In this document: one piece after another, positions 4,804-28,214 of the stretch
Numbering within the stretch: the first letter of the stretch is position 1
Layout of the letters: the number at the start of each line of letters is the position of its first letter
Source: Candidatus Doudnabacteria bacterium
GTDB lineage: Bacteria > Patescibacteriota > Doudnabacteria > UBA920 > O2-02-FULL-48-8
Assembly (NCBI GenBank): GCA_016182875.1
Contig: JACPFQ010000004.1
Location: forward strand, 28,637-92,636
Direction of reading: 5' to 3'
Length of the DNA: 64,000 nt
Notes under the pieces: model-generated
The model's database searches: none
The model's input: only the letters and a program-made list of their open reading frames with translations
Told to the model about the DNA's origin: nothing
Position numbers and translations under genes: made by a program

Positions 4804-5703
4804 CTAATATTTTAAACCCAGTTTATTTAATACGAATTTTAAATCTTCCGGGAGCTCCGAGATTAGCTCAAGCCAACTGCCATCGATCAATCTTAGTTTC
4901 AGCCTATGCGCGTGAAGGAATTGCCGGCCGATCAATTCGGCATCTTGCTGTTTAAACTTGCCGCCGTAGAGTTCGTCTCCGACCACCGGATAGCCAATAT
5001 GGCTCATGTGTACCCGTATCTGGTGAGTACGGCCTGTGTGCAATTTTACCTTAAGTAGAGAATATTGTAAAGGGTCATCAGAGGCCAATAAACTGTATTC
5101 CGTCACCGCTTCCCGCCCTTCTCCAACCTTCATCTTCTGATGAGTCCCGGCTTTGCCGATCGGAACGTCGATTATGCCGTGAAGCTTGGGCACGCCATGG
5201 ACCAAAGCCAAGTACTCCTTCTCTATGTTCCGAGTTTGAAAGAGATTTTTGAGGTACTCAAAGCCGCCGACTGTTTTGGCCACCAAAAGCAAACCGGATG
5301 TATCTTCATCAAGCCGGTGCACAATTCCGGGCCGGTGAGCGTCGCCGACTTTTTCGATGCCGGGAAATCTGGCGAGCAATGCATGCGCCAAAGTATTTCC
5401 CTCCCGACCAGCGGCCGGATGGACCATTAGTCCGGCGGGCTTATCAATCACAGCGAGGTCGGCATTCTCGAAAAGCACGGCAAGGTTTGAGGGGTGAGGT
5501 TTGAGGGGTGAGGTTTTAAACTCCGGAAGCTCAACAATATCATTTTCTGAAATCTGAAAATCTGGCTCCAAAACTTTCTGACCGTTGACCAAAACTAAGC
5601 CGTCCTTAATGGCCTTTTGAATCCTGCCGCGGGAAACTTCCGGAATTTTGCCGGATAAAAATTTATCCAGCCGGTCTGATTTGTCTACTGTAAATTTATG
5701 CAC
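4804..5703 (-). CDS. rluD: RluA-family 23S rRNA pseudouridine synthase (RluD-like) with S4 domain
   Basis: 299 aa. Catalytic motif HRLDEDTSGLLLVAK. N-terminal S4-like domain. Confidence 0.85.
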   Translation of the reverse strand: MHKFTVDKSDRLDKFLSGKIPEVSRGRIQKAIKDGLVLVNGQKVLEPDFQISENDIVELPEFKTSPLKPHPSNLAVLFENADLAVIDKPAGLMVHPAAGREGNTLAHALLARFPGIEKVGDAHRPGIVHRLDEDTSGLLLVAKTVGGFEYLKNLFQTRNIEKEYLALVHGVPKLHGIIDVPIGKAGTHQKMKVGEGREAVTEYSLLASDDPLQYSLLKVKLHTGRTHQIRVHMSHIGYPVVGDELYGGKFKQQDAELIGRQFLHAHRLKLRLIDGSWLELISELPEDLKFVLNKLGLKY

Positions 5704-5714
5704 ACTTTAATACG

Positions 5715-6038
5715 TTAAAGTATTTTAACTAATTTCTTAACGAGACGTTCACGGTCTTTAGTCATCTTAAGCAAGGTCTGCAAAGAAGAGGCTATATAAT
5801 AAGTCCGTTTCCCGACTTTTCTAGAACTAAAAAACCGTCGCCGGATTAGTTCCTCCATTAAATAATACGCTGTTGTACGCCTGACCCCCGCTCTTTTGGC
5901 TAACCGAGCCATAAGCTCGGGCCCTGATTTCAAGCCAGTATAATATATCTTTGCCTGAGCAACAGTAAATCCAAATCGAATGAGTTGAGTGACGATCTTT
6001 CGGTCAGTCATAAATGAATTATCCCAAATCATAAGCAA
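5715..6038 (-). CDS. Small helix-turn-helix DNA-binding protein (TrmB-like N-terminal HTH)
   Basis: 107 aa. AQAKIYYTGLKSGPELMARLAKRAGVRRTTAYYLMEEL resembles a TrmB winged-helix. Confidence 0.45.
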   Translation of the reverse strand: MLMIWDNSFMTDRKIVTQLIRFGFTVAQAKIYYTGLKSGPELMARLAKRAGVRRTTAYYLMEELIRRRFFSSRKVGKRTYYIASSLQTLLKMTKDRERLVKKLVKIL

Positions 6039-6132
6039 AAAGAAAAGCCGAACGAGAAAATCGTCCGGCGACTTGTATGATCACCCAGCAATGAGCATAG
6101 CTGCCTCTTCGGCCAACTCCGGTAAATACTTG

Positions 6133-6522
6133 TTACTCCCCCACGGCAAGTTGAAGACCGGTAGTCTTAGCCATTCCTTGCAGGTTAAAGAACCAGTCCC
6201 CCACTTTCCAAGACCCAATTTTTGAAGCCAGGATTCGGTAATGGCTACCCCCTTCGACAAAGGCGTTGACCGTTCTTTCTTCCAGTACCACTTGTATGTT
6301 GTCCAGTTGAATGAGCATAGAAGCCAATTCATCCAACTTAATCCGGTTTCGGGCGACACGAATGACAACAATGGTAGGTCTTTTCCGCAGCTTACGCATG
6401 TACACTTTCGTGTCACAAAAAAAAATCTTCGCAGCTGCCTTCTCGACCTTATCCACTGTTTCTGACCATGGCAGTACTTCGAATAGGTGGCATGTCCCAT
6501 TAGCTGTCGATTTTTTGCGCAT
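6133..6522 (-). CDS. Hypothetical protein
   Basis: 129-aa ORF with no recognisable motif. An overlapping alternative ORF 6081..6500 is less likely. Confidence 0.3.
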   Translation of the reverse strand: MRKKSTANGTCHLFEVLPWSETVDKVEKAAAKIFFCDTKVYMRKLRKRPTIVVIRVARNRIKLDELASMLIQLDNIQVVLEERTVNAFVEGGSHYRILASKIGSWKVGDWFFNLQGMAKTTGLQLAVGE

Positions 6523-6724
6523 CTTGACCTCCTTCCACTTGACTGGGTATTATAAGTCCTAGAGTAAAAAGTGTCAAGTTTTTCGTCACTTTTTTAGTAT
6601 TTAAAAATTCCCGCTTTGTTACAAATGTACCAAAAACGGAATGACTAGATTGCTTCATCCCCCGGATCGGAGTCCGGGGTCCTCGCAAATGCGCATCTGC
6701 GAGCCGTGACAGCGGCGTGGCAAT

Positions 6725-7471
6725 CTATTTATTTATTTCTAAACTTTTTGCACCTTTCCACGATAACTCATAGGCTTGTCGCATAGCCTCGGCAATGGCT
6801 TGGCTTTCGATTATCACAGACATATTCTCGGCATAGTTTAGAAACGCGACCTTGTTATTATAAATATTAACTTCGATTTGCGGGTCAAATTGTTCCTTGG
6901 CAACTACGAGCGTTTGCGATAATTCTTTTTCATCCAAATACCGGTGCTTGATATCCCACTTGCTGCCCTTGCCGGCAAGTCTGCGAGCCTTAATCCCCAA
7001 CGCAACCCGTTTTTGAATGTAATTTGGATCAACATTGGCCTTGCCTTCGAAATAAGCATTGGTATTGTACTCCAAAATCTCAGTAGGCTTTTCCTCCAAA
7101 GTATCATCATAAACTTTTTGAACCGCATTCGGTCCTTCATAAAAGGTGATTTTCGGTTTGGCTCCCTGTTTGTTGTAAATCGCGGCCAACTCCGGTAAGG
7201 CTTCCCTAATCCCGCTTTCCAGCTCGTTGACCAAACTTAGCAATCTTTGCGGCGGTTCGGCAACAAATCTATTTTTGCCTTTAATCTTGGTCTTGGCCAC
7301 CACACCGCGGTTAACTAGGTAAGAAAGCACGGAATAAGCAGTGGTCCGTTTAAGCCCGGCTACTGCCGCTATATCCTGGGCCGAAGCGGCGCCCGTTTCC
7401 AAACCAGCCAGGTAAACCCTGGCTTCATTGCGAGAAAACCCTAGTTTATGAAGTAATATGTTAATCGGCAT
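6725..7471 (-). CDS. TrmB-family transcriptional regulator
   Basis: 248 aa. N-terminal HTH (EARVYLAGLETGAASAQDIAAVAGLKRTTAYSVLSYLVNRGVV) plus a C-terminal TrmB-like domain. Divergent from the radical SAM operon. Confidence 0.7.
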   Translation of the reverse strand: MPINILLHKLGFSRNEARVYLAGLETGAASAQDIAAVAGLKRTTAYSVLSYLVNRGVVAKTKIKGKNRFVAEPPQRLLSLVNELESGIREALPELAAIYNKQGAKPKITFYEGPNAVQKVYDDTLEEKPTEILEYNTNAYFEGKANVDPNYIQKRVALGIKARRLAGKGSKWDIKHRYLDEKELSQTLVVAKEQFDPQIEVNIYNNKVAFLNYAENMSVIIESQAIAEAMRQAYELSWKGAKSLEINK

Positions 7472-7664
7472 TGAATTATGACGAATATTTCGTCGTCTTT
7501 AGTATAGCAAAATAATCGCTTATCTGTCAAATAATTCAGACATTAATACTGGCTACTCGTCAAAAAATGACGAGAAATATGGACATTTAGCCCTTTTTTG
7601 AATAAACTTAACCGTCACAGTAACGGATCGTTTCTTAACAACTACAACTGCCACGGAGGGAAAA

Positions 7665-9035
7665 ATGAAATTCCTGCTCATTATCCCACCCTACGTGGTG
7701 GATGAAAATGGTTTAGGCATCTGCCCTAAAAAAGCGATGCTCCCGGTCGGTCCCCTCTCCATCGCAACTGCTCTACTCACAAGGGGGCATGCAGTTGAGG
7801 CGTTGGACTTGGTCTTCGTATCAGAATGGTGCGAACGGCTCGTTTCAATTCTCCAAGCACCTTATGACCGCATTCTGCTTTCTTGCCACACCACTCGCAA
7901 CATCGCGGTCTGCAAGCAAGCCGAACCGCTTATCCGTTCATTGCAACCGGGAGCACATATTACCCTCGGCGGGAATGTCTGTGTGGATCTGGGAACTGAA
8001 GACTTCCGCAAACTTGGGCTTCATGTTGATGCTGTTGTGCGCGGCTATGGCCACGCCGACAATGTCATCAAAGCAATCGAGTGCGGGGAAAACGGAGATA
8101 TCAGGCCGCAATCAGTCCCGCAAGATCTGCCTGCCCCGGCACTGCACCTGCTTGATGAAGAAACGCACCGACAGTACCGCGAAGAAACATCAGGCGGAAA
8201 GTATCCCATGATCGGACCCGGCGGCTTCGGCTGCTACTGGTCCTGTGAGTACTGCTCAGCAAAAATGAATTCTCCGGCCGTTGTGCGGACGTGGAAAGGC
8301 ATTGAAATTGAAAGCGAAATCAATCTTGCTGTTGACTACGGATACACGCACCTCTGGTGCGTGGACAACCTGGTCATCCACAACAACGAAGAAAAAGTGT
8401 TGCGGTTCGACAGCGAGGTTGGCAAGCGCGGACTTACCTGGTCTGGTATGACCCGTCCCGAACTGGTTCTCAAACACTCGCATCTGTTCAGTAAGCTTCA
8501 CTCGCTCACGGAACTGGCAGTCGGGATCGAATCCGCTAGCCCGCAGGAACTCACGGTGTGGGGCCGAGGAAACCGAGTCGGCTATCTGGAAACCTGCCAT
8601 ATGGCAGTCCGGATAGTCCACGATGCGGGAATCGCGACCAATGCATTCGTCATGCTCGGAGGACCGGGTGCAAATGAGCAGGGTTTCTGGGAGCTTTACC
8701 GCTTTCTCAAGTCCCTGCCGCTCAGCACCATCTCGTGGTCGTTCTTTAATCCCTCACCCAAAACACTCGCGGCTGATCAACTTGAGCCCAAGCAATTCGG
8801 TTTCTACCGCTGGCCGCTGCTTTCTGCTGTACCGCCCGCTCGGGTGGTGCAGTGGGCCATGATTCTTTCGGGATCATGGTGGAGCGGCTGGCGGCTCAAC
8901 GAGTCCGATCCCTTTTTCTCGGACGACGAACGCTTCGGTATCCGGTTTGAAGAAGGGATTATATACCAACCAACAGATGCCAGGTCGGAAATAGGTGATC
9001 TTTGGGAGATCTGGCGCAGAGGGAGGATGGCATGA
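7665..9035 (+). CDS. B12-binding-domain radical SAM enzyme (class B-like)
   Basis: 456 aa. N-terminal Rossmann-like B12-binding region. CxxxCxxC motif CYWSCEYC. No SPASM-type C-terminal cysteines. GC is visibly higher than in neighbouring genes. Confidence 0.75.
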   Translation: MKFLLIIPPYVVDENGLGICPKKAMLPVGPLSIATALLTRGHAVEALDLVFVSEWCERLVSILQAPYDRILLSCHTTRNIAVCKQAEPLIRSLQPGAHITLGGNVCVDLGTEDFRKLGLHVDAVVRGYGHADNVIKAIECGENGDIRPQSVPQDLPAPALHLLDEETHRQYREETSGGKYPMIGPGGFGCYWSCEYCSAKMNSPAVVRTWKGIEIESEINLAVDYGYTHLWCVDNLVIHNNEEKVLRFDSEVGKRGLTWSGMTRPELVLKHSHLFSKLHSLTELAVGIESASPQELTVWGRGNRVGYLETCHMAVRIVHDAGIATNAFVMLGGPGANEQGFWELYRFLKSLPLSTISWSFFNPSPKTLAADQLEPKQFGFYRWPLLSAVPPARVVQWAMILSGSWWSGWRLNESDPFFSDDERFGIRFEEGIIYQPTDARSEIGDLWEIWRRGRMA

Positions 9036-9109
9036 AGAAGAACGAAAAACCCGAGATCATCGATCTCGGGCCGTATGACAAGCGGCCGTCCGGGCAGCAG
9101 CCCGGGTAG
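9032..9109 (+). CDS. Small peptide A (25 aa) MKKNEKPEIIDLGPYDKRPSGQQPG; candidate precursor peptide
   Basis: ATG overlaps the rSAM stop (ATGA). GGGAGGA lies just upstream. Shares the C-terminal motif PY..RP.GQQPG with peptide B. Confidence 0.5.
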   Translation: MKKNEKPEIIDLGPYDKRPSGQQPG

Positions 9110-9146
9110 GCCGCAAAAATCCAAAACAGAAAGGAGGTGATTTGAG

Positions 9147-9230
9147 ATGGCGGAGAAGGAACCGGCTCCCAAGCCGGCACCGCCCGAGGAGCCCTATCCG
9201 GGACGCCCGAAAGGCCAGCAACCCGGCTAG
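9147..9230 (+). CDS. Small peptide B (27 aa) MAEKEPAPKPAPPEEPYPGRPKGQQPG; candidate precursor peptide
   Basis: Perfect RBS AAGGAGGTGA 6-7 nt upstream. Pro-rich. C-terminus is homologous to peptide A. Followed by a terminator. Confidence 0.5.
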   Translation: MAEKEPAPKPAPPEEPYPGRPKGQQPG

Positions 9231-9242
9231 ACCCGCTCCCCG

Positions 9243-9292
9243 CTCGTTGGCCCGGCTGCGACTGCACATCGCAGGCCGGGTCTCTTTTTTTC
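9243..9292 (+). terminator. Rho-independent terminator ending the rSAM/peptide operon
   Basis: GC-rich hairpin GCCCGGCTGCGA...TCGCAGGCCGGG followed by TCTTTTTTT. Confidence 0.65.
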
Positions 9293-9308
9293 AATTAACC
9301 ATACTTAT

Positions 9309-9644
9309 ATGCAACAAGTCACATGGCAACAATTCGAACAAATAGAGCTCAGGGTTGGCACAATCCTTAAGGCTGAAGATTTTCCTGAGGCTAGAAGGTC
9401 TTCTTATAAATTAGAAATCGACCTGGGAGAATTCGGCATTAAAAAATCAAGCGCTCAAATCACTCATCTCTATAAACCAGAAGAGCTTGTCGGCAGACAA
9501 GTGCTTTGTGTCATAAACTTCCCGCCCAAACAGATCGCCAATTTTTTCTCGGAGGTTTTGACTTGCGGATTTTATCTGCCAACGGGAGAAGTGGTGCTTG
9601 CTCAACCGGAAAGAAAAGTCCCTAACGGCTCAAGGCTTGCGTAA
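9309..9644 (+). CDS. csaA: CsaA/Trbp111-like tRNA-binding domain protein
   Basis: 111 aa. ELRVGTI...VINFPPKQI resembles the EMAP/CsaA tRNA-binding fold. Confidence 0.7.
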
Positions 9645-10313
9645 CAAATCCGGCCTTCGCTTTTTGGTCCGCTTAAGCGCTTCGGCTTTGCGCCACTCAT
9701 TGATTTTGGCGTGATTGCCGGAAAGCAAGACTTTCGGCACCTTCATGCCTTTGTAATTTTCTGGTCTCGTATACTGAGGATACTCCAGGAGGTTTTCTGA
9801 GAAGCTTTCATTCACGGTTGACTCAAACTTACCCACTACTCCTGGCACCATGCGAGCAACCGCATCGACCACTGCCATGGCCGGAATCTCGCCACCAGTT
9901 AATATATAATCGCCAATGGAAATTTCTATGTCCGCCAACTTTCTTATACGTTCATCAAATCCCTCATAGCGCCCGCAAATCAGAATCAAAGTTTTATTTT
10001 TGCTTAACTGCTTCACCAGTTTCTGATTTAAGGTTTTGCCTTGTGGGGTAAGGAGTACTACTTTTCGCTTTTCGCTTTTCGCTTTTCGCTTAAGATCGCG
10101 CAAGACGCGATCAATTATATCAACCCTCATAACCATCCCAGCGCCACCGCCATAAGGCCGGTCATCAACGGACTTATGCGCATCAGTCGCCCAGTCCCGC
10201 AAATTGCGGACTTGAATTTTTATAAGCTTCTTGGCGAGCGCGCGTTTAATTACGCTTATATTGAAATAAGATTCGAATGCTTCCGGAAAGATTGTGAGGA
10301 TGATGAATTTCAT
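9630..10313 (-). CDS. trmD: tRNA (guanine37-N1)-methyltransferase TrmD
   Basis: Start taken at [16 protein letters not shown] TrmD motifs ([21 protein letters not shown]). Contains an in-frame (GCGAAA)n repeat. Confidence 0.85.
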
Positions 10314-19782: not shown

Positions 19783-19918
19783 ATCAAAGAAAACGCTTGT
19801 CAATTCATTATTTTCATTAATTCGCAAAATTCGTATTTTGTAAAAATGAAAGCAGCTGCCTGTATCTTCCCTGGTATACCCAGGGTCGATAACAAACAGC
19901 TGCTGCGATGAGCCAATC

Positions 19919-21430
19919 TTACACGACGCGCGACACCGGCACTTGGTCCATGGCCGGCGGCAGCTCCGGAACCTGCCGTCCTTCCTTCCCCGTATCTGCC
20001 CACGCCGAACCGTTGCGTTCATCTGATCGCTTCACGATCTTGCCATCGAGGTATTTCTCGATGACCTCGATGATGGTCTGATCATCGAGGGCGCATGGCG
20101 GCCCTTCCTTATGCGACTGCGTCGAACCGCCACCAAGGATGTAGCCGGCCTTTGCCGAGGGCATTGAGAACTGCGAACCCTCGACGTAGTTGGCCGCGAG
20201 CTCAGCATCGGTTCGCTCGGTCTTGTCCCCTCGCAGCGCGAACTCCCAACGCCGTAGTTCGATCAGGATCCGGCGCAGGCTGAGCTCAATTTCGATGAAC
20301 GGAATTTCGACGTCCTGCTCCTCCCTGTGGCTTTCTTGCTGGGCGTCGGGATCCTGCGTCATCTCGTCTTCTTGTTCTTTCTTTTTGATTCCTTCGCGGA
20401 TCGAGATGTACACATGACCCCTGGAGTTACGAATGAGAATCACGTCAGCGCCGACGTATCGTGATCGCAAAATTCGCGCGAGCTCGCCGTCACCTGACAG
20501 CGGATGCTCTTTGCGAATCACCACGAACCTGATGGACGGCTTGATGCCAGCGACCTTGACTTTCCGCAACTCGCCTCGGTTGGGTGCAAAGCGCTTAAGG
20601 CACTGTGCAAAAGTCACCTCATTCATGAGCTTTATCCAAAGCTCCAACAAAGTGCTCTGGACGACCTGGGTGGCCAGGAAATTCCCCCGCTCCTCAGGAT
20701 CTTGCGGAAGCGATTGTTCCGAGAGAGCGAGGTGTGGCGGGAATTTCTCGCCGGCAGCGATGCGGTCGGCGATCGCCCACTTGTGCTTGACCACGGGCCC
20801 CATTGCGTCGGAATCGTTGACTCGCCCGCGATCACCCTTCTTAACGTAGTGCGTGACTGAGTCAATCGCGAACCTGATGACGTCAGGCTCGTAGCCCAGA
20901 CGCTTGAAGAACTCGCCACGGTGAAGCAGATCGAGGCCCCGCTTCGAAGGATCCGTGAGATAAGCCGTGTGTTCCGCCTTGTAGCGTTCGAACTTGGCCC
21001 GGTATGCGTTCCACTTAGCTTTGTTCTCCTCAGTCTCTTTCTCTTTCGGCGGCCTCGGAGCCTTGGGGTAATACCCCTTGCCCAGCAGCTCCGCAGCGCA
21101 GGTGTTGATCTGTTCACCCTGTTCGTCCATCCGCCCATGCTCGTCATACGGATTGTCTGTGCCGCCGATTCCGATCGGTGTCAGCCCCAGCGAGTAGAGT
21201 TCTGCGGAAGTCGTATTGTGCGGATCCCGCACGCAAACGACCTTGCCTTCTTTCGGCATCAGTTCGCCGCCGAAGAAGGTGCCCTGAAAAATCGCCCACT
21301 GCTCATCGAGATGAGGATCAGTGTGCGGAGCAAAGGCCCCAGACAACCCCAGGGGGTCGTCTTTGGCCATGGCTCTAATCTGCTCAACAGTGAGTACGAG
21401 TGTCTTGATGTTGGCGATTTCGTGCAACAT
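19919..21430 (-). CDS. Hypothetical protein encoded in the high-GC island
   Basis: High-GC ORF. Start taken at MLHEIANI after RBS AGGGGGA (the longer ORF runs to 21532). No family recognised. Confidence 0.4.
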   Translation of the reverse strand: MLHEIANIKTLVLTVEQIRAMAKDDPLGLSGAFAPHTDPHLDEQWAIFQGTFFGGELMPKEGKVVCVRDPHNTTSAELYSLGLTPIGIGGTDNPYDEHGRMDEQGEQINTCAAELLGKGYYPKAPRPPKEKETEENKAKWNAYRAKFERYKAEHTAYLTDPSKRGLDLLHRGEFFKRLGYEPDVIRFAIDSVTHYVKKGDRGRVNDSDAMGPVVKHKWAIADRIAAGEKFPPHLALSEQSLPQDPEERGNFLATQVVQSTLLELWIKLMNEVTFAQCLKRFAPNRGELRKVKVAGIKPSIRFVVIRKEHPLSGDGELARILRSRYVGADVILIRNSRGHVYISIREGIKKKEQEDEMTQDPDAQQESHREEQDVEIPFIEIELSLRRILIELRRWEFALRGDKTERTDAELAANYVEGSQFSMPSAKAGYILGGGSTQSHKEGPPCALDDQTIIEVIEKYLDGKIVKRSDERNGSAWADTGKEGRQVPELPPAMDQVPVSRVV

Positions 21431-21560
21431 GGCAAAATCCCCCTGCGTTATGTGAATGTTCGAGTTAATGACGTTGAGACAGTCGCCCCAATTGCCGACT
21501 GTAACCGAAAATTTTATCAAAAACACGGTCATCTGTCAATTCAAAGCAACAAAGCTAACG

Positions 21561-21589
21561 TTGACAAAGTGGCCGAAAGTTGCTAGAAT
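21561..21589 (+). promoter_or_regulatory. Consensus sigma70 promoter TTGACA-17-TAGAAT within the island
   Basis: Perfect -35 and near-consensus -10 with 17-bp spacer. Reads toward the island plus-strand operon. Confidence 0.55.
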
Positions 21590-21777
21590 TCGCGGTTATC
21601 ATGTCTGACCGCCCTTTGTATCGGCGGCATCATGATAGGTCTTTAATAATCGTGTTTTAATCATAGGATTTGGTGGGCTGTTTTTTGCGTTGGGTGTGAT
21701 GAACATTCAGCGCAAGAAGCGGTCTAAACATTTACCACGCAACAGACTCTATCAGCCGATCCGTTTAGGAGGCAGAC

Positions 21778-22515
21778 ATGGCAAAAACGCCACCAGGAAA
21801 AGGGCCTAGAAAGGGTCCCGGCGGAAAAACCGGGGGTGGCCCCAGGAAAGCGGTTTACAAGCGAATATACGAAGTCGGCGGCACACCCGACGCCACCGAG
21901 CTCACTGTCACCATCTACAGGGACGGCCTGCTCGCGGACAAGGAAGCCGTGTGGTTCTACCTCGGGGTCGAAGGCAATCTGCACCAGAAGCCGGCCGAAG
22001 AACTCGACCCGGCAGCCCCCGGCGGCAAGAAAATTTGGAAGCTCGAGACCAAGGGCGGAGTCGCCCACGGCAGGCTCGACTTCACGAGCGCCGAGCTCTC
22101 CAAATTCACACACGTCACGGCTAAGCACGGCTCGTTCGACTGGGAGGAGACGAAGACACGGCCGCCAGCAGAGCCCACTGGGGTGAAGCCGAAAACCAAG
22201 TGGTTCAAGCTCACCCCCGACGACGAGAAGATCGAAACCTGGGATGAGCGCGCGGCGTTCACCTTGGTCACCTTCGACGCCACGGGCAAAACCCCGTCGG
22301 CCGAGACGATGCGCATCAGCGCAGGCAAGGTCATTCGCCTGTTCAACCGCGAAACCGGAGCGCTCATCGGCGAGGGCAAGGTCATCACGTTCGCAACGCC
22401 GGGCACCGGCATCCTCGACATCGAAGTCGAGGTCGTCGGCGACTTCCTGGCGAAGCTGACGTTCATGCACATCGCCAGCGCCGAGACGCTCACCAAGGAA
22501 ATCCGACTCAAATAG
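21778..22515 (+). CDS. Island hypothetical protein with Lys/Gly/Pro-rich N-terminus
   Basis: 245 aa. RBS GGAGG. High-GC codon usage. Overlapping minus-strand ORFs are treated as spurious. Confidence 0.45.
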   Translation: MAKTPPGKGPRKGPGGKTGGGPRKAVYKRIYEVGGTPDATELTVTIYRDGLLADKEAVWFYLGVEGNLHQKPAEELDPAAPGGKKIWKLETKGGVAHGRLDFTSAELSKFTHVTAKHGSFDWEETKTRPPAEPTGVKPKTKWFKLTPDDEKIETWDERAAFTLVTFDATGKTPSAETMRISAGKVIRLFNRETGALIGEGKVITFATPGTGILDIEVEVVGDFLAKLTFMHIASAETLTKEIRLK

Positions 22516-22526
22516 GAGAGACTGAC

Positions 22527-23141
22527 ATGGCAGAGATTGGCGGTATCAAGTTTGACTTCCCGGCCATCAAGGAAGTCCTCGCGTCGGCGGCTGGCCATCA
22601 GGTCTCCAACCTGTTGAGCTTCATCCTCGAACGCGGAACCGAGGCCGAGAAGCAGATCGTCGTCCAGGCCGGCAGGTTGATGGCCGAGGGCAAGTTCAAG
22701 GAAGCCGAGGAAGCATTGAAAGCGCTCCCCGGCGGAATCGGCCGGGCTGACGAAGCCATCTGGTGGTCGGATCTGGCATTCCTGCGGCGGCGCAACCTGC
22801 TCACTCCCGCGCAGGCGACGGCGCTCGAAGCCTTCCTCCGCAACCTCACGGAAGCGGAGAAGGACAAAATCCGCCTGACGCACGTGGTCAAGAATGAAGA
22901 CCAGCGCCGCCACGACCTGGTGACGCTGGGACGCATCGACAGGGACGACGCCAAGCGCCAGCACCTGGACATGGTGTTTCACAAAACGCTGGCCGACACG
23001 CTCAACGCAATCGGCGCGCAGGTCAGCACCTGGGTTCGTCCCAAGATTGAGGAAGCCCAGTGGCGAAACAAGCGGTTCGACGGACCGATCTGGCGGCTCT
23101 TCCGCCCGATCACCTGCATCTGGGAAGGCCTCGGCTTCTAA
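22527..23141 (+). CDS. Island hypothetical protein
   Basis: 204 aa. RBS AGGAGAG 7 nt upstream. Tightly packed with flanking plus-strand genes. Confidence 0.45.
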   Translation: MAEIGGIKFDFPAIKEVLASAAGHQVSNLLSFILERGTEAEKQIVVQAGRLMAEGKFKEAEEALKALPGGIGRADEAIWWSDLAFLRRRNLLTPAQATALEAFLRNLTEAEKDKIRLTHVVKNEDQRRHDLVTLGRIDRDDAKRQHLDMVFHKTLADTLNAIGAQVSTWVRPKIEEAQWRNKRFDGPIWRLFRPITCIWEGLGF

Positions 23142-23153
23142 GGAGAAGAGACA

Positions 23154-24107
23154 ATGAATCAGTTCGAACAAGCGTTGCTCCATGTCCTCGAACTGGCCTT
23201 CACCGATGGCAAGGGTAAAGTCCAGAGGACGATTCGTCCCATCACCGCCGGCTGCACGTTCTTCTGGGCGCTCGGCATGTTCCTGGCGTGGCTGCTCCAG
23301 AGCGGGACCCCGGCGTTCGTGTGTGCGGCCATCTGCGGCGCCATCTGGTTCATCCCCATCGGCCGGGTTGCTCTGGCCGCATGGATTGCCCAGATGATTC
23401 CCGAAGAGTGGCTGAAGAAACTGGGCTTGAGCGTCGAAAACTTCACGCCCAGCAAGACCACCTACACCCTCGGCACCGTCGGCATGTGGCAGATCGCGTC
23501 GCTCATCCTGCTCGGAGTCTTCCCGTTCTGGAAGAGCGGCATGTACTACTCGCTGTATGCCGCGTTCTGGGCCGTGATGGTGGCCACGTGGCTTATTGTC
23601 GCTACGTCCGAAGGCGACATCCGCTTCTGGCGCAAGATCTACGGCTGGTCCATCGCCGGGATTTTCGCCGGGATTCTGCTGTTGCTGCTAATGCCGGAAG
23701 AAGTCAACGGACTGCGGTCGTGGTTGGATCGGCGTGCGACGTACACCGTGGCCGAGACCGCGTTCCACAACGGCGTCGCGTCAGATACGCAAGCCATGCT
23801 CCAGCAGACTGACCAGAACCTCCGCGTCCTCGTCAACCAGCGCCGGTACTACAACCTTCAAGGTTGGGACTATCCGGCGGACAAGGAAGCGGAGATCGTG
23901 CGGCTGACTGCGCTGCACGAAGACCTCGTGCGGGAGCGCGACGTTCCGATTGCCAAGGCGCCGGGCCGGTTCTCGGCCGAAGCCGCCAACGCATTCGGAA
24001 GTTCACTCGACTTCGTCAGCGCGACAGCCAGCAACCCCTGGCTCGCGGGGTTTGCCTGCTTCGCACTGCTGATGTTCGGCTGGGTGGTCATGAAGGGAAG
24101 GAGCTAG
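23154..24107 (+). CDS. Island polytopic membrane protein
   Basis: 317 aa. RBS AGGAGAAG. Several hydrophobic helices. Confidence 0.45.
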   Translation: MNQFEQALLHVLELAFTDGKGKVQRTIRPITAGCTFFWALGMFLAWLLQSGTPAFVCAAICGAIWFIPIGRVALAAWIAQMIPEEWLKKLGLSVENFTPSKTTYTLGTVGMWQIASLILLGVFPFWKSGMYYSLYAAFWAVMVATWLIVATSEGDIRFWRKIYGWSIAGIFAGILLLLLMPEEVNGLRSWLDRRATYTVAETAFHNGVASDTQAMLQQTDQNLRVLVNQRRYYNLQGWDYPADKEAEIVRLTALHEDLVRERDVPIAKAPGRFSAEAANAFGSSLDFVSATASNPWLAGFACFALLMFGWVVMKGRS

Positions 24108-24109
24108 CC

Positions 24110-24919
24110 ATGAGCACACCATCTTCGTCGTCAGGAAACGGCCGACTCCGGCGCTTCGTGATCTTCGTCGGGTTCATGGGCGTGATCTGGTTCGCCTTGC
24201 TTCAGCCATGGATGCAGAGCGCCATCGGGTTCAACGGCTGGCACATCATGGCCTACCAGAACGGCATCCGCTCGGCGGACTGGCGCTGTGCCAACAAGCA
24301 GCCCGAGGACATCGGTCCGGACTGCGACATCGACGCAGTTTATGAGAGGTACGTCCCCACCGCACAGCGCGCCGGCAACCTGACAGCGTCGGTCCACCAG
24401 CTCAACGCAATCGCGGCGAACCTCGCCACGGTCAAATCGCCGCTGGTGGTCGATTCTGGGTCCGCGCTCTGGCAGCTCGACAATATCCACGACACAGAAT
24501 ACCGGCAAACCTTCAAAGGTATCCCTGTGTTCAAGGGTCGGGTGCAGATCCGCGTCCGCGAGCGCGTCACCAGCAAGGACTGCGGCTACAATACAACGGA
24601 CGCCAACGGGGTGCCCAAGCCCGGCGGGCCGTTCTGCAAGCTGGAGCTTGTGGACGACAACCTGCCGTACCTGGCCGCGATCGGGCGGCGGTGTCCGGCA
24701 GAGGGCTGCAGCAATCCCTCGTCCTTCACCAGTCCGGAGGCCAAGTTCCTGGTCGGGACGTGTCTCGACCTGGACGCGGCTGCGGTCAACGGTGTCGTCA
24801 ACCTCGTCGTCAATGAGGGTCGGCATGCCGACTACTTCGGCGACAATACCGGGGACTACGTCGTCGAGTATGAACACAATCCCGCGACTGGCTGCCGTGG
24901 GGAGCAGTTCACGTACTAG
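24110..24919 (+). CDS. Island secreted/membrane-anchored Cys-containing protein
   Basis: Start taken at MSTPSSSS after RBS GGAAGGAG. Signal/TM segment FVIFVGFMGVIWFALL. Confidence 0.4.
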   Translation: MSTPSSSSGNGRLRRFVIFVGFMGVIWFALLQPWMQSAIGFNGWHIMAYQNGIRSADWRCANKQPEDIGPDCDIDAVYERYVPTAQRAGNLTASVHQLNAIAANLATVKSPLVVDSGSALWQLDNIHDTEYRQTFKGIPVFKGRVQIRVRERVTSKDCGYNTTDANGVPKPGGPFCKLELVDDNLPYLAAIGRRCPAEGCSNPSSFTSPEAKFLVGTCLDLDAAAVNGVVNLVVNEGRHADYFGDNTGDYVVEYEHNPATGCRGEQFTY

Positions 24920-25053
24920 CAGCCAACCCAAGGAGGAAGCGTCTCCGGTCAGATGACTGGAGGCATGACAATAACCACGGCCCTGAAGGAGCAGGGCTGG
25001 AGAGCGGCGTCGCACAATCGGCACCGCTTTTTTTTATTTTGCAAAACAAAATA

Positions 25054-25078
25054 CTCCGACCCGCCCGCGGCGTCGGAG
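25054..25078. repeat. CTCCGAC...GTCGGAG hairpin (member of TCCGAC hairpin family)
   Basis: 7-bp inverted repeat with 11-nt loop. Same arm sequences as the hairpins at 39332, 39921 and 60646. Confidence 0.5.
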
Positions 25079-25315
25079 TTAAACTGGCTTTAATATTGCC
25101 TCTATGGGCAGGGATATTGGCGAATCTGTTTTTAGCCGCTTGCTGAAATTGAGAATAGTGAATCCTTTGATGGCTTTGGTTTTAGGATCAAGCCGAATCA
25201 CGACATCATCCGCAGTTTCTACAGAGAGGGAGCTTTTGGATGGCTTGCCTTGGGAAAAATACATTACGTCTGCTTGTTTGTCGTAGTAGTAATAAAGTTT
25301 CATGATTGAATCCAA
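25079..25315 (-). CDS. DUF2283-family small protein (second copy)
   Basis: 78 aa. YYYYDKQADVMYF...KAIKGFTILNF. Low GC, embedded in the high-GC island. Confidence 0.5.
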   Translation of the reverse strand: MDSIMKLYYYYDKQADVMYFSQGKPSKSSLSVETADDVVIRLDPKTKAIKGFTILNFSKRLKTDSPISLPIEAILKPV

Positions 25316-25608
25316 TAAGTTAAATACGCTGTGAGGATAAAATTTCGCCTGTTAATTTTGACGACTGCTGCCAGATGCTTGTTATGAGAAATTTCGCGGT
25401 AAAGAATAAATGCCTTGGGATCTGTTTTGGATGGACGAATAAGCTCTGGATTTTCCAAAACAAGCTTTATGCTTGGCTTGAGAGTTCTCAGCTCGGGGTG
25501 AAAATTGACTATGTGGCTCCACCGTTCGCTGGTCAATTCCACCGGCCCGAATGGTGAGTCAAATAGCTCCATGTAAAAATTATAAACCCATTGCGTCAGT
25601 CTTGACAA
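25300..25608 (-). CDS. DUF4258-like small protein (putative toxin partner)
   Basis: 102 aa. Overlaps the downstream DUF2283 gene by 16 nt. Same gene order as the pair at 2506-2953. Confidence 0.4.
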   Translation of the reverse strand: MSRLTQWVYNFYMELFDSPFGPVELTSERWSHIVNFHPELRTLKPSIKLVLENPELIRPSKTDPKAFILYREISHNKHLAAVVKINRRNFILTAYLTYWIQS

Positions 25609-25630
25609 GTGGACGGTTTTCTGCTATACT
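25602..25630 (+). promoter_or_regulatory. Sigma70-type promoter TTGACA-17-TATACT upstream of island secreted protein gene
   Basis: Shares the core TTGACAA.GTGG.CG with the promoter at 21561. Confidence 0.45.
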
Positions 25631-25745
25631 TGTACGTTAAAATCCCGAATTTGTTTCAGGGCCCAAAATTGAGGGCTCTACAACAAGTTCAGAATTTACG
25701 GAAACCGCAAGAATTGTAAAAAGGTCTAGGAGGACCAATACTACC

Positions 25746-26738
25746 ATGAGAACGAAACTCTTTTTCGTCGTCGCGTTCGTCGCACTCGCGTCTACCGCGT
25801 TCGCACAGGAGACGCTCGACTTCAGTACCCAGCCGCGCTCAGTGCGCGCCATCGCTAAGGTCGTCATCGAGACGGCGGGGTACCTCGTCAGCGAGGAGTC
25901 GCTGAGCACCATCGACCCCTCCTGCACGTGGAACCGCACGCTCGACGTGAGCGACCTCGAGCAGGCGCTCAACACCATCCTGCCGAGTTGCGGCAACGAG
26001 GCGCAGTTCGACGACTACCGGGTGACCATCCGGAAGCGCGGCAGCCCGGCACCAGCCACACGCAGTATGTCCGCTCCCGCTCGCCGCGCCGCAACGCCGA
26101 CCATCGCGGAACCCGAACCGCCTGCCGCTCAGCCTGCCGCACCCGCGGCGCCGGCGTCCACTGACCCGAACGTGTGGTCAGCCGCCGACGTCAGCCGCTA
26201 CGGCCCCTTGCCGCTGAATGCCAGGCCGGAGTTCTATCGCATCAGCCAGCAGGTCAGGCGGCAGGCGTTCGGCGACGCGTTCGTCAACTTCCGCAACGCG
26301 GAAGAGGACTTCGCACGCCGCACCGGCGTTTACCCCGATCAGGTTGGTCCGTTCGTCGGCGCTACCTACGGCGCATATTCCCCCTACGGTTTGTACGGCT
26401 ACGGCCTCTCGAGGGGTTGTTCCACTGGACAGCCGTCCGGCAGGGTCAAGTTCAAGTACTACGGTGAGGGAAAGGAACGTGGCCTCTGGAAGGTCTGGTT
26501 CAACGGACGTCGTATCGGGTCCGTGGACCAGGGAGACAGTGCGTGGAACGAGATGTGGGAGTGCGTCGGCGACTATGTCGTCGAAATCGAAAAACGCCGC
26601 TGTCAACCCAGGGGTCTCTGCCGGTATCGAGACGTGTACAGCGTCAGAGCCGGCGAACTGACCGAGGTTGAGATCGGCGACGTGCTGTTCGAAGACAGCC
26701 ACGAACGGCGGCGGCCTCAGATTCTCACCGAGCGTTAA
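25746..26738 (+). CDS. Secreted protein with signal peptide and Pro/Ala-rich linker (high GC)
   Basis: 330 aa. MRTKLFFVVAFVALASTAFAQE signal peptide. RBS AGGAGGA. Confidence 0.5.
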   Translation: MRTKLFFVVAFVALASTAFAQETLDFSTQPRSVRAIAKVVIETAGYLVSEESLSTIDPSCTWNRTLDVSDLEQALNTILPSCGNEAQFDDYRVTIRKRGSPAPATRSMSAPARRAATPTIAEPEPPAAQPAAPAAPASTDPNVWSAADVSRYGPLPLNARPEFYRISQQVRRQAFGDAFVNFRNAEEDFARRTGVYPDQVGPFVGATYGAYSPYGLYGYGLSRGCSTGQPSGRVKFKYYGEGKERGLWKVWFNGRRIGSVDQGDSAWNEMWECVGDYVVEIEKRRCQPRGLCRYRDVYSVRAGELTEVEIGDVLFEDSHERRRPQILTER

Positions 26739-26766
26739 TAGCGCTCGGATCTCATGGATGCCAAAA

Positions 26767-26810
26767 CGGCCAGTTACTCATCGCGAGTGACTGGCCGTTC
26801 GTTTTTTATG
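26767..26810. terminator. Bidirectional terminator at island right edge
   Basis: GGCCAGTTACTCATCGCGAGTGACTGGCC hairpin followed by a T-run. Confidence 0.6.
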
Positions 26811-26815
26811 AACAC

Positions 26816-27184
26816 TTATACGTAATCGCTCAGGGCACTGTTAATCACATTAACAATAACATATGAGAGGATAATCACCACCAAACCGATAATTGCGTTA
26901 CGCAAAGTTTTTTTGCCGTTCTCCGCCCATTCTTCATTCGCTCCGGAAAATATATATTGGAACCCCCCGATAATAACGAACAGTACGGCCAAGAGGCCAG
27001 CAAACGTCAGAAGAATGTTTATTATTTTTGTAATCAGGGCCGCGGGGGATGAACTGTACTCAGGTAAAGTCCCACTTGCGGGGTTCGGTATATCCAATCT
27101 AGCCAATGTCAGCAACGGCATGCCCATTACAACAATTGCCATCAAAACTATCGGCAGATACTTTTCAAGCTTTTTTAAGCTCAT
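26816..27184 (-). CDS. TrbC/VirB2-like pilin family protein (paralog 1)
   Basis: 122 aa. Signal peptide plus two TM helices with motif GGFQYIFSGANEE..A....IIGLVVIILSY. Confidence 0.6.
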   Translation of the reverse strand: MSLKKLEKYLPIVLMAIVVMGMPLLTLARLDIPNPASGTLPEYSSSPAALITKIINILLTFAGLLAVLFVIIGGFQYIFSGANEEWAENGKKTLRNAIIGLVVIILSYVIVNVINSALSDYV

Positions 27185-27185
27185 A

Positions 27186-27319
27186 CCAGGTACTGAAAAT
27201 TTGATTTAATGATACTTAACATAAGTTATATTATTATCTAGTCCGGTAATAAAAATTTGATTTAACTGCTGGTCTTTTAGTCCCGCCTTTGGCGGGACTA
27301 TCAAATTTCTAGTACCTGG
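27186..27319. repeat. 134-bp segment bounded by 20-bp inverted repeats CCAGGTACT(G/A)GAAAATTTGAT
   Basis: IRs at 27186-27205 and 27300-27319 (19 of 20 match). The segment holds the terminator hairpin of pilin 2 and the promoter region of pilin 1. Confidence 0.55.
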
Positions 27320-27340
27320 CATACTTTTTTCTTTAGCTTG

Positions 27341-27724
27341 CTAAACGCCGCTGCTGCCACTGCTAAGCAAGGCGTTGGAAATCACGCGGACAATCACGAA
27401 CGAAAGAATAATCACGACGATTCCGATAATGGAATTGGTGATGATTTTTTTGGCGCTCTCGCCCGCTTCCTCATTGCCGGCTGCGGTAATGTAGCGGAAG
27501 CCGCCGATGATGAGGAACAGCACTGCGACCAATCCGGCAATCGCAAGAGCTATGTTGATGATACGCAGGATGAATTCGGAAAGCTTGGTATCGCCCGGAA
27601 GATTGGTGCCAGTGGGATTTGGCCTTTCGAATTGCGCGCCTGAGACCAATGGCAGGACGAACAAAGCCAGGCTCAGCACAATCGAGGTAATCTGGGCAAT
27701 TTTGACTAATTTATTATGCTTCAT
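27341..27724 (-). CDS. TrbC/VirB2-like pilin family protein (paralog 2)
   Basis: 127 aa. GGFRYITAAGNEE motif. Confidence 0.6.
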   Translation of the reverse strand: MKHNKLVKIAQITSIVLSLALFVLPLVSGAQFERPNPTGTNLPGDTKLSEFILRIINIALAIAGLVAVLFLIIGGFRYITAAGNEEAGESAKKIITNSIIGIVVIILSFVIVRVISNALLSSGSSGV

Positions 27725-27753
27725 AGGTTTCTTGAGTTTTTTATCTTTAGGTT

Positions 27754-27796
27754 CGCCCGGTCATCCGACCGGGCGTCCAGTCGAATGACTGGACGA
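27754..27796. repeat. GC-rich double-hairpin repeat (REP-like), copy 1
   Basis: CGCCCGGTCATCCGACCGGGCG + TCCAGTCGAATGACTGGACGA. Roughly 85% identical to 50950-50993. Confidence 0.5.
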
Positions 27797-27824
27797 CCGA
27801 CCTTTCTACCTAAAGCTATTAATG

Positions 27825-28214
27825 TTATGTGGGAGGCTTGGATAAGGCGTTATTGATTACGCTAACTATTATATAAGAAAGAATAATTATAGACAAACCA
27901 ATTATAGCATTTCTTAAACCCTTTTTGCCAGCCTCGGCCCATTCTTCATTGACGCCCGATGTGATGTACTGGAAGCCGCTGTAGATGATGAAAAAGATGG
28001 CCAGGACGCCGGCCACAACCAAAAGCTGCCTGATAAAGAAGGTGAATAGGTAGCCAAAGCTGTTGCAGGCTGTTCCGGGCGTGGCGTCAGCCGGACAGGT
28101 GCCAAAATCGACCAAATAATCCTTTGAGGGATTTTTGATTTCTGCCAGGGCTGGCAAAGCCAGCACAGCGACAACCAAACACGCGATAATCCAAAATTTA
28201 TACTTATTTTTCAT
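27825..28214 (-). CDS. TrbC/VirB2-like pilin family protein (paralog 3)
   Basis: 129 aa. SGFQYITSGVNEEWAE motif. Confidence 0.6.
   Translation of the reverse strand: MKNKYKFWIIACLVVAVLALPALAEIKNPSKDYLVDFGTCPADATPGTACNSFGYLFTFFIRQLLVVAGVLAIFFIIYSGFQYITSGVNEEWAEAGKKGLRNAIIGLSIIILSYIIVSVINNALSKPPT

Follow-up and report, generated by a model that had tools for sequence, protein, structure and literature searches.

Closest described systems

The subject of this study is a gene cassette in a 64-kb stretch of DNA (the window, which throughout means the whole stretch that was analyzed), in which the gene for a class B-type radical S-adenosylmethionine (SAM) enzyme is followed by genes for two very short peptides, A and B, and preceded by a divergently transcribed regulator gene. 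An earlier note, made from the sequence alone, had proposed that the cassette represents a system of the kind that yields peptides made on the ribosome and modified after translation (RiPPs). With moderate confidence we regard it as a self-contained, regulator-controlled peptide-modification (RiPP-like) module in which the peptides are the substrates of the enzyme and are probably C-methylated. Most characterized peptide-acting class B radical SAM enzymes are indeed C-methyltransferases (PMC12931638), in line with general knowledge.

Several described systems resemble the cassette in that the gene for a B12-type radical SAM enzyme lies beside the gene for a ribosomal precursor peptide. These are PoyB/PoyC from polytheonamide biosynthesis, the radical methyltransferases (RMTs) of bottromycin biosynthesis, the clavusporin enzyme MpcB and ApyD. 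These systems operate with leader peptides, partner proteins (DUF5825) or both, and with peptidases and transporters, whereas the peptides encoded here comprise 16–33 amino acids and the regulator is the only constant partner. In addition, the cluster motif of MpcB reads CX7CX2C as opposed to CX3CX2C here, and the window enzyme falls neither among the proteusin-type RiPP C-methyltransferases (TIGR03975; 13.1 bits compared to a cutoff of 281.85) nor into the ApyD family (NF050148; 12.7 bits compared to 750). B12-dependent radical SAM enzymes C-methylate proline in the clavusporins (PMC10849626), which were checked as a possible case of the same system and found to be a different one.

The nearest solved fold is that of MgmA/QCMT (PDB 9ccb; 17–18% identity), the glutamine C-methylase acting on methyl-coenzyme M reductase (MCR). 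QCMT methylates 13-mer peptides at Cα, including the conversion of glycine to D-alanine (PMC13469106). It is an archaeal enzyme that acts on a large enzyme subunit whose gene is located elsewhere, and no dedicated small peptide gene accompanies it. The window enzyme scores only 11.2 bits against the corresponding model TIGR04014 (cutoff 360) and, unlike QCMT, belongs to a family with a C-terminal domain of its own. TsrM (PDB 6wte), the Trp C2-methyltransferase of thiostrepton biosynthesis, shares approximately 16% identity with the window enzyme, which it exceeds in length by 110 residues. The substrate of TsrM is free tryptophan, the methylation proceeds by a non-radical mechanism, and the peptides described here do not contain a conserved tryptophan.

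Two further groups are related in logic. The TvgA/TigB poly-cyclopropylglycine systems share with the sister-clade precursors described below the principle of one radical SAM enzyme that iterates on a short repeat. Their repeat motifs, TVGG and TIGSVS, are unrelated to QAPAG. The precursor at locus L020 matches the NCBIfam model RiPP_TigB weakly, at 20 bits and thus far under the cutoff of 70. The TvgA/TigB maturases are of the SPASM type and not of the B12 type (PMC10878394). In the mycofactocin (MftA/MftC) and pyrroloquinoline quinone (PQQ; PqqA/PqqE) pathways, the radical SAM gene likewise has a neighbor that codes for a very short peptide whose C-terminus carries a conserved motif. The products of these pathways remain inside the cell without an exporter, as is probable for the cassette. 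The enzymes of both pathways are SPASM radical SAM proteins that need a PqqD-type chaperone or RiPP recognition element (RRE), a peptidase and further enzymes. Neither SPASM nor PqqD/RRE nor a peptidase of this type was detected at the cassette.

The general kind, a ribosomal peptide modified by a radical SAM enzyme, is known, but the form seen here is apparently undescribed. It appears to be set apart by leaderless substrates of 16–33 residues, by the lack of an RRE, a protease and an exporter, by a TrmBL2-like regulator with conserved operators and by a sister clade that works with heptad repeats. Literature searches for QQPG in combination with radical SAM enzymes, for heptad motifs, for radical SAM precursors from the candidate phyla radiation (CPR) and for B12-dependent radical SAM RiPP mining returned no description, subscription-only papers lying outside this search. 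No curated family covers the enzyme above its cutoff either.

Gene arrangement and peptide partners

All elements of the transcription unit are located on the plus strand. The gene for the 456-residue radical SAM enzyme (7665–9035) is preceded by the ribosome-binding site (RBS) GGAGGG (7655–7660). Its TGA stop overlaps with the ATG of the gene for peptide A (9032–9109; 25 amino acids, MKKNEKPEIIDLGPYDKRPSGQQPG) in an ATGA arrangement (9032–9035), and peptide A has its own RBS, GGGAGG (9021–9026). Peptide B (9147–9230; 27 amino acids, MAEKEPAPKPAPPEEPYPGRPKGQQPG) follows behind the RBS AAAGGAGGTGA (9130–9140). The unit ends with an intrinsic terminator (9249–9291) consisting of a 13-bp GC-rich stem (9249–9282) and a U7 tract (9285–9291), for which RNA folding yields a dG of −24.7 kcal/mol (z = −2.4). 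The two peptides have the C-terminus PYxxRPxGQQPG in common. Translational coupling, RBSs, the shared motif and the strong terminator are thus all present as described in the earlier note. The regulator protein is 100% identical to a protein from a 'Candidatus Doudnabacteria' metagenome-assembled genome, which identifies the host as a bacterium of the Patescibacteria/CPR. Locus L025 from a public assembly corresponds to window positions 6667–10090 with 0 mismatches.

A word-index homolog search returned at least 49 homologs of the radical SAM enzyme with 40–52% identity, several of which are labelled Patescibacteria. This number is a lower bound, since the window's own enzyme and that of locus L029 (P0052) were not returned even though both are present in public assemblies. 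About 30 loci (termed L001 and so forth) were retrieved and about 20 distinct ones examined. In every one of the latter a gene encoding a Q(A)P(A)G motif adjoins the radical SAM gene. The co-occurrence of radical SAM homologs with small open reading frames (ORFs) of the GQQPG type, on which the earlier proposal depended, is therefore found, with 12 loci encoding a terminal QQPG, two encoding a terminal PPQAFG or PPMAPG and five encoding (QAPAGxx)n.

In all 14 distinct Patescibacteria-type loci for which downstream DNA is available, the radical SAM gene is directly followed by one or two small ORFs, every one of which has a GGAGG site and, in most cases, a terminator behind it. Hairpins equivalent to the window terminator also reside 3' of the peptide genes in L013, L015, L019, L022, L023, L024 and L029. 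In 12 of the 14 loci the peptides (type 1; n = 15, 16–33 amino acids) end with QQPG immediately before the stop codon. Their consensus is P-[FY]-x-G-[RK]-P-x-[GCA]-Q-Q-P-G, with an invariant terminal QQPG and a highly variable N-terminus. The arrangement with two peptides is not restricted to the window but also found in L003/L007 and L008. The remaining two loci, L013 and L019, encode type-2 peptides ending with GVKPPQAFG and GVVPPMAPG. The aromatic residue at position −11 is absent from the second peptides as well as from the type-2 peptides. A six-frame scan of the window and 14 loci (approximately 170 kb) found terminal QQPG only directly after radical SAM genes and nowhere else.

A different arrangement is present in all five distinct high-GC loci, which are not Patescibacteria-like; one is labelled Longimicrobium, and the contig of another, 1 Mb in length, also carries LpxB and BamD-like genes. 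In these loci, the precursor is encoded upstream of the radical SAM gene and consists of a conserved leader (...ESI.EQA.NAR.IAEER..G.GG...) followed by tandem QAPAG-x-x heptads, the APAGPQQ heptad occurring in 3, 4, 7, 14 or 15 copies. Locus L020 was considered as an exception without a peptide until a full scan revealed an upstream precursor of 460 amino acids with approximately 57 copies of QAPAG[F/Y/A]I or QAPAGV. The sole element common to all partner peptides is thus Q-(A)-P-(A)-G, a Pro/Gly/Gln motif in which Q and P are each substituted once in the type-2 peptides (QAFG, MAPG) and only Gly is invariant. Neither type-1 peptides nor repeat precursors match a curated family above cutoff, and a heptad-repeat precursor used as query for a homology search retrieved a single weak match of no relevance, compositional-bias correction suppressing repeat matches in such a search.

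The peptides could in principle be small partner or regulatory proteins, for example a subunit, inhibitor or chaperone, while the real substrate of the radical SAM enzyme would be a different one, such as a tRNA. This appears very improbable. The three peptide architectures are unrelated and have only the short motif in common, placed at a free C-terminus in one and repeated in 3–57 tandem copies in another, which fits a site of recognition or modification and not a folded partner. The tRNA_bind gene that lies beside the cassette in the window is missing from all high-GC loci as well as from roughly half of those of the Patescibacteria type. Furthermore, the extra N-terminal cluster and the TRAM domain of MiaB/RimO were not detected in the enzyme by Pfam.

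Heptad copy number differs even between close relatives. L010 and L021 are near-identical yet contain seven and three heptads, respectively. In L020, an inverted repeat (5700–6000 and 7290–7620 of that locus) with a 36-nt exact match, GAGCCGCGACACTTGCACCGCACTCCCGGAAGGACA, borders the radical SAM gene on both sides; it is possibly similar to repetitive extragenic palindromes (REP) or miniature inverted-repeat transposable elements (MITE).

Coding constraint on the small ORFs

In the QQPG codons of the 15 type-1 peptides, all four third positions are variable as compared to none of the eight first and second positions, and all three stop codons, TAG, TAA and TGA, occur. The heptad arrays show the same pattern, with six to seven of seven third positions variable and changes at first and second positions confined to the last, degenerate unit. 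When L003 and L008 are compared, the ORFs for peptide 1 are identical in 68 of 69 nucleotides and differ in the stop codon only, as opposed to 88.5% identity for the radical SAM DNA. For peptide 2 of the same loci, ten of eleven changes fall into the N-terminal half and the only C-terminal one replaces Cys by Gly at position −5. Since nucleotide variation sits at third codon positions, the constraint must act on the protein. As far as sequence can show, the small ORFs are coding, with predicted start codons.

An alternative would be that the small ORFs remain untranslated and that their conservation reflects an RNA or DNA element or chance. The ORFs are certainly very short, and standard gene callers skip them: in assemblies identical to the window, a 70-aa ORF on the opposite strand (9057–9269, minus) has been called across both peptide genes and the peptides were missed. 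Variation restricted to third codon positions, with synonymous codons and all three stops in use, effectively refutes this explanation, which we consider as having next to no likelihood. It would also have to account for a properly spaced GGAGG RBS at each ORF and for a motif that is kept in upstream as well as downstream arrangements, at neither of which Rfam gave a match. An Rfam scan of the window found tRNAs only, and neither a cobalamin riboswitch nor another RNA at the cassette. The conservation of the small ORFs together with their translation signals, GGAGG sites as well as terminators, had been anticipated in the earlier note and is thus evident. Precursor genes are adjacent to and co-conserved with the enzyme gene in all of the approximately 20 distinct loci and are under purifying selection at the codon level, as in RiPP systems. 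Taken together, sequence and comparison establish the family assignment, the co-occurrence and the coding constraint.

The radical SAM enzyme and its possible chemistry

Pfam assigns both domains of the window enzyme above their gathering cutoffs, PF02310 (B12-binding) with 34.4 bits compared to 32.1 for residues 18–130 and PF04055 (Radical_SAM) with 32.4 bits compared to 29.5 for residues 188–348. The enzyme thus consists of an N-terminal Rossmann B12-binding-like domain (approximately 18–130), a radical SAM TIM barrel and a family-specific C-terminal domain (approximately 360–456). A Rossmann-type cobalamin-binding-like domain located N-terminal to the radical SAM domain corresponds to structural class I of the class B radical SAM enzymes. 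The cluster motif GCYWSCEYC (C190-x3-C194-x2-C197) contains the CxxxCxxC signature, which is invariant in 31 sequences. The last 97 residues (360–456) do not contain a single cysteine and Pfam found no SPASM domain; a SPASM or twitch domain is therefore absent. All of this agrees with the earlier description of a class B-like protein with a CYWSCEYC cluster, a B12-binding-like N-terminus and no SPASM cysteines.

When 1.84 billion representatives were searched exhaustively with a profile, a family of about 19 proteins scoring 200–660 bits emerged, after which scores fall to 159 bits or less. The proteins in the latter range are generic class B radical SAM enzymes aligned only to profile positions of approximately 1–360. 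The drop in score and this restricted coverage define a small, sharply bounded family that has a specific C-terminal domain, about 90 residues long. None of the NCBIfam models comes near its cutoff, the top score being 43 bits compared to 360. The AlphaFold model of the enzyme (predicted local distance difference test, pLDDT, 92; predicted template modelling score, pTM, 0.90) superposes on radical SAM cores. With no NCBIfam family near cutoff and a protein-glutamine C-methylase as the nearest fold, an assignment to a family with non-peptide substrates, which the earlier note had named as an objection, is not supported.

The invariant sequence H75-T76-x-R78-N79 was aligned by HMMER with the TVRN sequence of TsrM, although this alignment amounts to only 17.8 bits. 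In TsrM, Arg69 of this sequence sits beneath the cobalamin (PMC12931638). The alignment of R78 with this residue supports a cobalamin site, and use of cobalamin by the enzyme appears most likely.

On the basis of these features and by analogy to the systems introduced above, we infer that the enzyme modifies the peptides, most likely with C-methyltransferase chemistry. C-methylation is the most likely outcome because it is typical of peptide-acting class B radical SAM enzymes, because the fold is closest to QCMT and because there is precedent for C-methylation of proline. The TrmBL2-like protein, a repressor or an activator, would act at two palindromic operators around a sigma-70-type promoter. 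A single transcript would comprise the radical SAM gene and the one or two translationally coupled peptide genes and would end at the intrinsic terminator. The peptides, as the presumed substrates, would be recognized directly via their short C-terminal or repeat motif, probably by the family-specific C-terminal domain and without a leader/RRE step, similar to QCMT and Mmp10, both of which take 13-mers as substrates. The enzyme would then cleave SAM at the [4Fe-4S] cluster, and most likely cobalamin would transfer the methyl group to an unactivated carbon of the motif. Within the motif, Gln (at Cα or Cβ), Pro and the invariant Gly are candidate sites. Neither export nor proteolysis of the modified peptide is obvious, and it probably functions as an intact small peptide, either inside the cell or via general export.

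Several observations weigh against modification by C-methylation as proposed here. Patescibacteria are, to our knowledge, generally not producers of cobalamin. The residue at the aligned lower-axial position is an arginine, and a hydrophilic lower face is associated with enzymes that do not carry out radical methylation (PMC12931638), the alignment in question scoring only 17.8 bits. A conserved leader-like N-terminus is found only in the repeat-type precursors; the type-1 peptides with their 16–33 residues and variable N-termini offer too little length for the classical division into leader and core. Both Q and P are replaced in some peptides (QAFG, MAPG), which precludes an assignment of the modification to a particular residue. 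Finally, Pfam and the inspection of neighborhoods did not reveal a conserved RRE, PqqD, leader peptidase or protease, exporter or transporter, or second tailoring enzyme near the cassettes.

It is possible, though we think it unlikely, that enzyme and peptides form the same enzyme-substrate pair with a chemistry other than methylation. The B12-like domain would then be devoid of cobalamin, as in AprD4, or use it differently, as in OxsB or TsrM, and the Q(A)P(A)G motif would be epimerized, dehydrogenated, cross-linked or rearranged. A hydrophilic lower face goes with enzymes that do not carry out radical methylation, for example TsrM and OxsB (PMC12931638), and this association together with the arginine at the aligned position leaves the chemistry open. 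On the other hand, most characterized peptide-acting class B radical SAM enzymes are C-methyltransferases (PMC12931638). Obvious partners for a cross-link are not kept in all variants either, the aromatic residue at −11 being one that is missing from second and type-2 peptides.

The invariance of the C-terminal tetrapeptide next to a highly variable N-terminus, the lack of a conserved exporter and the retention of the module with a dedicated regulator in reduced genomes would also be in accordance with a peptide that serves as scaffold or precursor from which a small molecule or a cofactor is made, as is the case for PQQ, mycofactocin and the pearlins, its transformed C-terminal residues being released by a housekeeping protease. 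We judge this improbable, as neither a peptidase nor a second tailoring enzyme is conserved, a SPASM domain and a PqqD-like partner are lacking, and the type-2 termini PPQAFG and PPMAPG alter the supposed building blocks. Moreover, the motif of the sister clade is internal and present in up to 57 repeats, which is better reconciled with a poly-modified protein.

The genomes of Patescibacteria are tiny, and specialized peptide chemistry is believed to be scarce in them. A conserved module of regulator, B12-type radical enzyme and peptide that is invisible to standard annotation would add an enzyme-substrate family to this group. If the peptides are indeed substrates, the module would be very compact, with one enzyme and a recognizable motif of 12 residues but no leader, protease or partner. 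Its chemistry is directly testable, and it could be of use as a minimal tool for peptide tailoring. For the sister clade, the 3–57 tandem QAPAG heptads suggest that enzymes of this family modify repeat proteins iteratively.

Regulator and operators

The gene for the TrmBL2/TrmB-like winged-helix regulator (6725–7471, minus strand; 248 amino acids) confirms the divergent TrmB-family gene noted previously. The protein matches PF01978 (TrmB) with 54 bits (cutoff 25.6; E 1e-14), and its AlphaFold2 model (pLDDT 90) yields full-length Foldseek matches to TrmBL2 (5bpd; E 5e-13) and TrmB (3qph; E 4e-8). The regulator is encoded upstream in divergent orientation in each of the 16 Patescibacteria-type loci for which upstream information is available and shows 59–78% identity, which is above that of the radical SAM enzymes. 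It is absent from the high-GC loci. Look-ups that started from the regulator led to a radical SAM gene in two of two cases; as the search for radical SAM homologs is incomplete, regulator orthologs without a cassette cannot be counted from it.

Two palindromes are located between the divergent genes. The first, ATGACGAATATTTCGTCGTC (7478–7497; TGACGAA-N5-TTCGTCgTC), adjoins the start codon of the regulator gene, is matched once in the window (0.13 matches expected) and has equivalents at the same position in other loci. The second, CTCGTCAAAAAATGACGAG (7556–7574; CTCGTCA-N5-TGACGAG), is likewise matched only once (0.02 expected) and lies 5 nt upstream of the −35 element of a sigma-70-like promoter (7580–7608, plus strand) that was predicted by a consensus scan with −35 TGGACA, a 17-nt spacer and −10 TAAACT. 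Where the exact second palindrome is present in other loci, it occurs as one copy in the regulator-radical SAM intergenic region and abuts a TTGACA-like −35 element; the placement of the predicted promoter relative to the palindrome is kept. Some lineages feature a TGACA..TGTCA variant in its place. Both palindromes are operator-like and candidate binding sites of the divergently encoded regulator.

A TrmB-like paralog of 107 amino acids that comprises only the winged-helix domain is encoded at 5715–6038 (minus strand), approximately 690 nt from the 248-aa regulator. The region in between (6039–6724) contains only overlapping, unconvincing ORFs and could be a pseudogene or non-coding.

Neighboring genes

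The cassette of the window is followed by a gene for a tRNA_bind protein of the CsaA/Trbp111 type (9309–9644, plus strand; 111 amino acids; Pfam tRNA_bind E 1.5e-15), a possible accessory gene. Its ATG is situated only 17 nt past the U-tract of the terminator and expression may for this reason depend on read-through. Such a gene directly adjoins the cassette in seven of 16 Patescibacteria-type loci and is found within 3 kb in two more. Loci with an adjacent tRNA_bind gene include the window, L001, L002 (5646–5969), where it is placed between regulator and radical SAM gene, L004/5, L023 (5527–5862), L029 and the P0034 contig. The link could represent an accessory component or mere conserved synteny. 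In L015, genes for tRNA-Gly(UCC) and tRNA-Gly(GCC) (7745–7902) are located just after the peptide terminator, a position taken by tRNA-Pro(UGG) in L009 (4040–4115) and L022 (5470–5545). Pro and Gly are also the residues with which the conserved peptide terminus ends. The proximity of these tRNA genes, seen in two lineages, may have arisen by chance, mark a hot spot of integration or point to a functional link.

These neighbors would be accounted for if the peptides acted on translation. The P-[YF]-x-x-R-P core of the Pro/Arg-rich peptides presumably resembles the Y-L-P-R-P sequence of ribosome-targeting proline-rich antimicrobial peptides, and because of this resemblance the peptides of the Patescibacteria might act on translation, be it their own or that of the host cell of these episymbionts. 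It is a speculative and rather doubtful proposition that the enzyme family installs a previously unseen modification on a leaderless, minimal Q(A)P(A)G motif and that the Patescibacteria peptides have such a target. One candidate for this modification is methylation at Cα, either in Gln or in the invariant Gly, which would become Ala; another is methylation of a Pro carbon. If this were true, the same enzyme family would decorate proteins of up to 57 tandem repeats in other phyla.

The heptad cassettes of L010 (2400–9500) and L021 are surrounded by mobile or phage-like genes, encoding a resolvase, a TIR-domain protein, a ParB-N6/N4 methylase, DUF5681 and a terminase. A reading of the cassette as a defense system or as phage-borne was dropped even so, since scans of viral contigs found no member of the enzyme family and PADLOC produced only noise-level matches.

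Composition and evolution

The earlier note had put the surrounding genome at about 40% GC. In fact, the window has a mean of approximately 47%, compared with 55.5% for the cassette. The accompanying notion of a compositionally foreign operon holds in part and is no more than suggestive. At 0.60, the GC content at third codon positions (GC3) of the cassette exceeds that of its immediate neighbors (0.39–0.57), but it is within the range of the window ORFs of at least 200 amino acids (0.56 ± 0.11), among which the cassette is not an outlier. In every Patescibacteria-type locus for which it was computed, GC3 of the radical SAM gene is higher than that of the neighbors (for example 0.52 as compared to 0.34 in L003). 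The composition of the regulator gene is host-like.

Peptide type tracks the tree of the radical SAM enzymes: the type-2 pair L013/L019 forms a clade and so do the loci with repeat-type precursors. The trees of enzyme and regulator are only partly congruent. Between L009 and L024 the regulators are 87% and the radical SAM enzymes 54% identical, and between the window and L023 identity amounts to 83% for tRNA_bind, 77% for the regulator and 47% for the radical SAM enzyme. This discordant divergence and the GC3 offset of the radical SAM genes suggest one of two scenarios: the enzyme-peptide pair undergoes bursts of evolution, seemingly at a much higher rate than its flanks, or it is exchanged at a fixed site linked to the regulator.

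A GC-rich island at window positions of approximately 19900–28000 deviates far more than the cassette. Its ORFs of 200–540 amino acids match neither Pfam nor PHROG families. With 55–62% GC and an ORF GC3 of 0.70–0.83, compared to a window mean of 0.56, the island may be a foreign or mobile segment.

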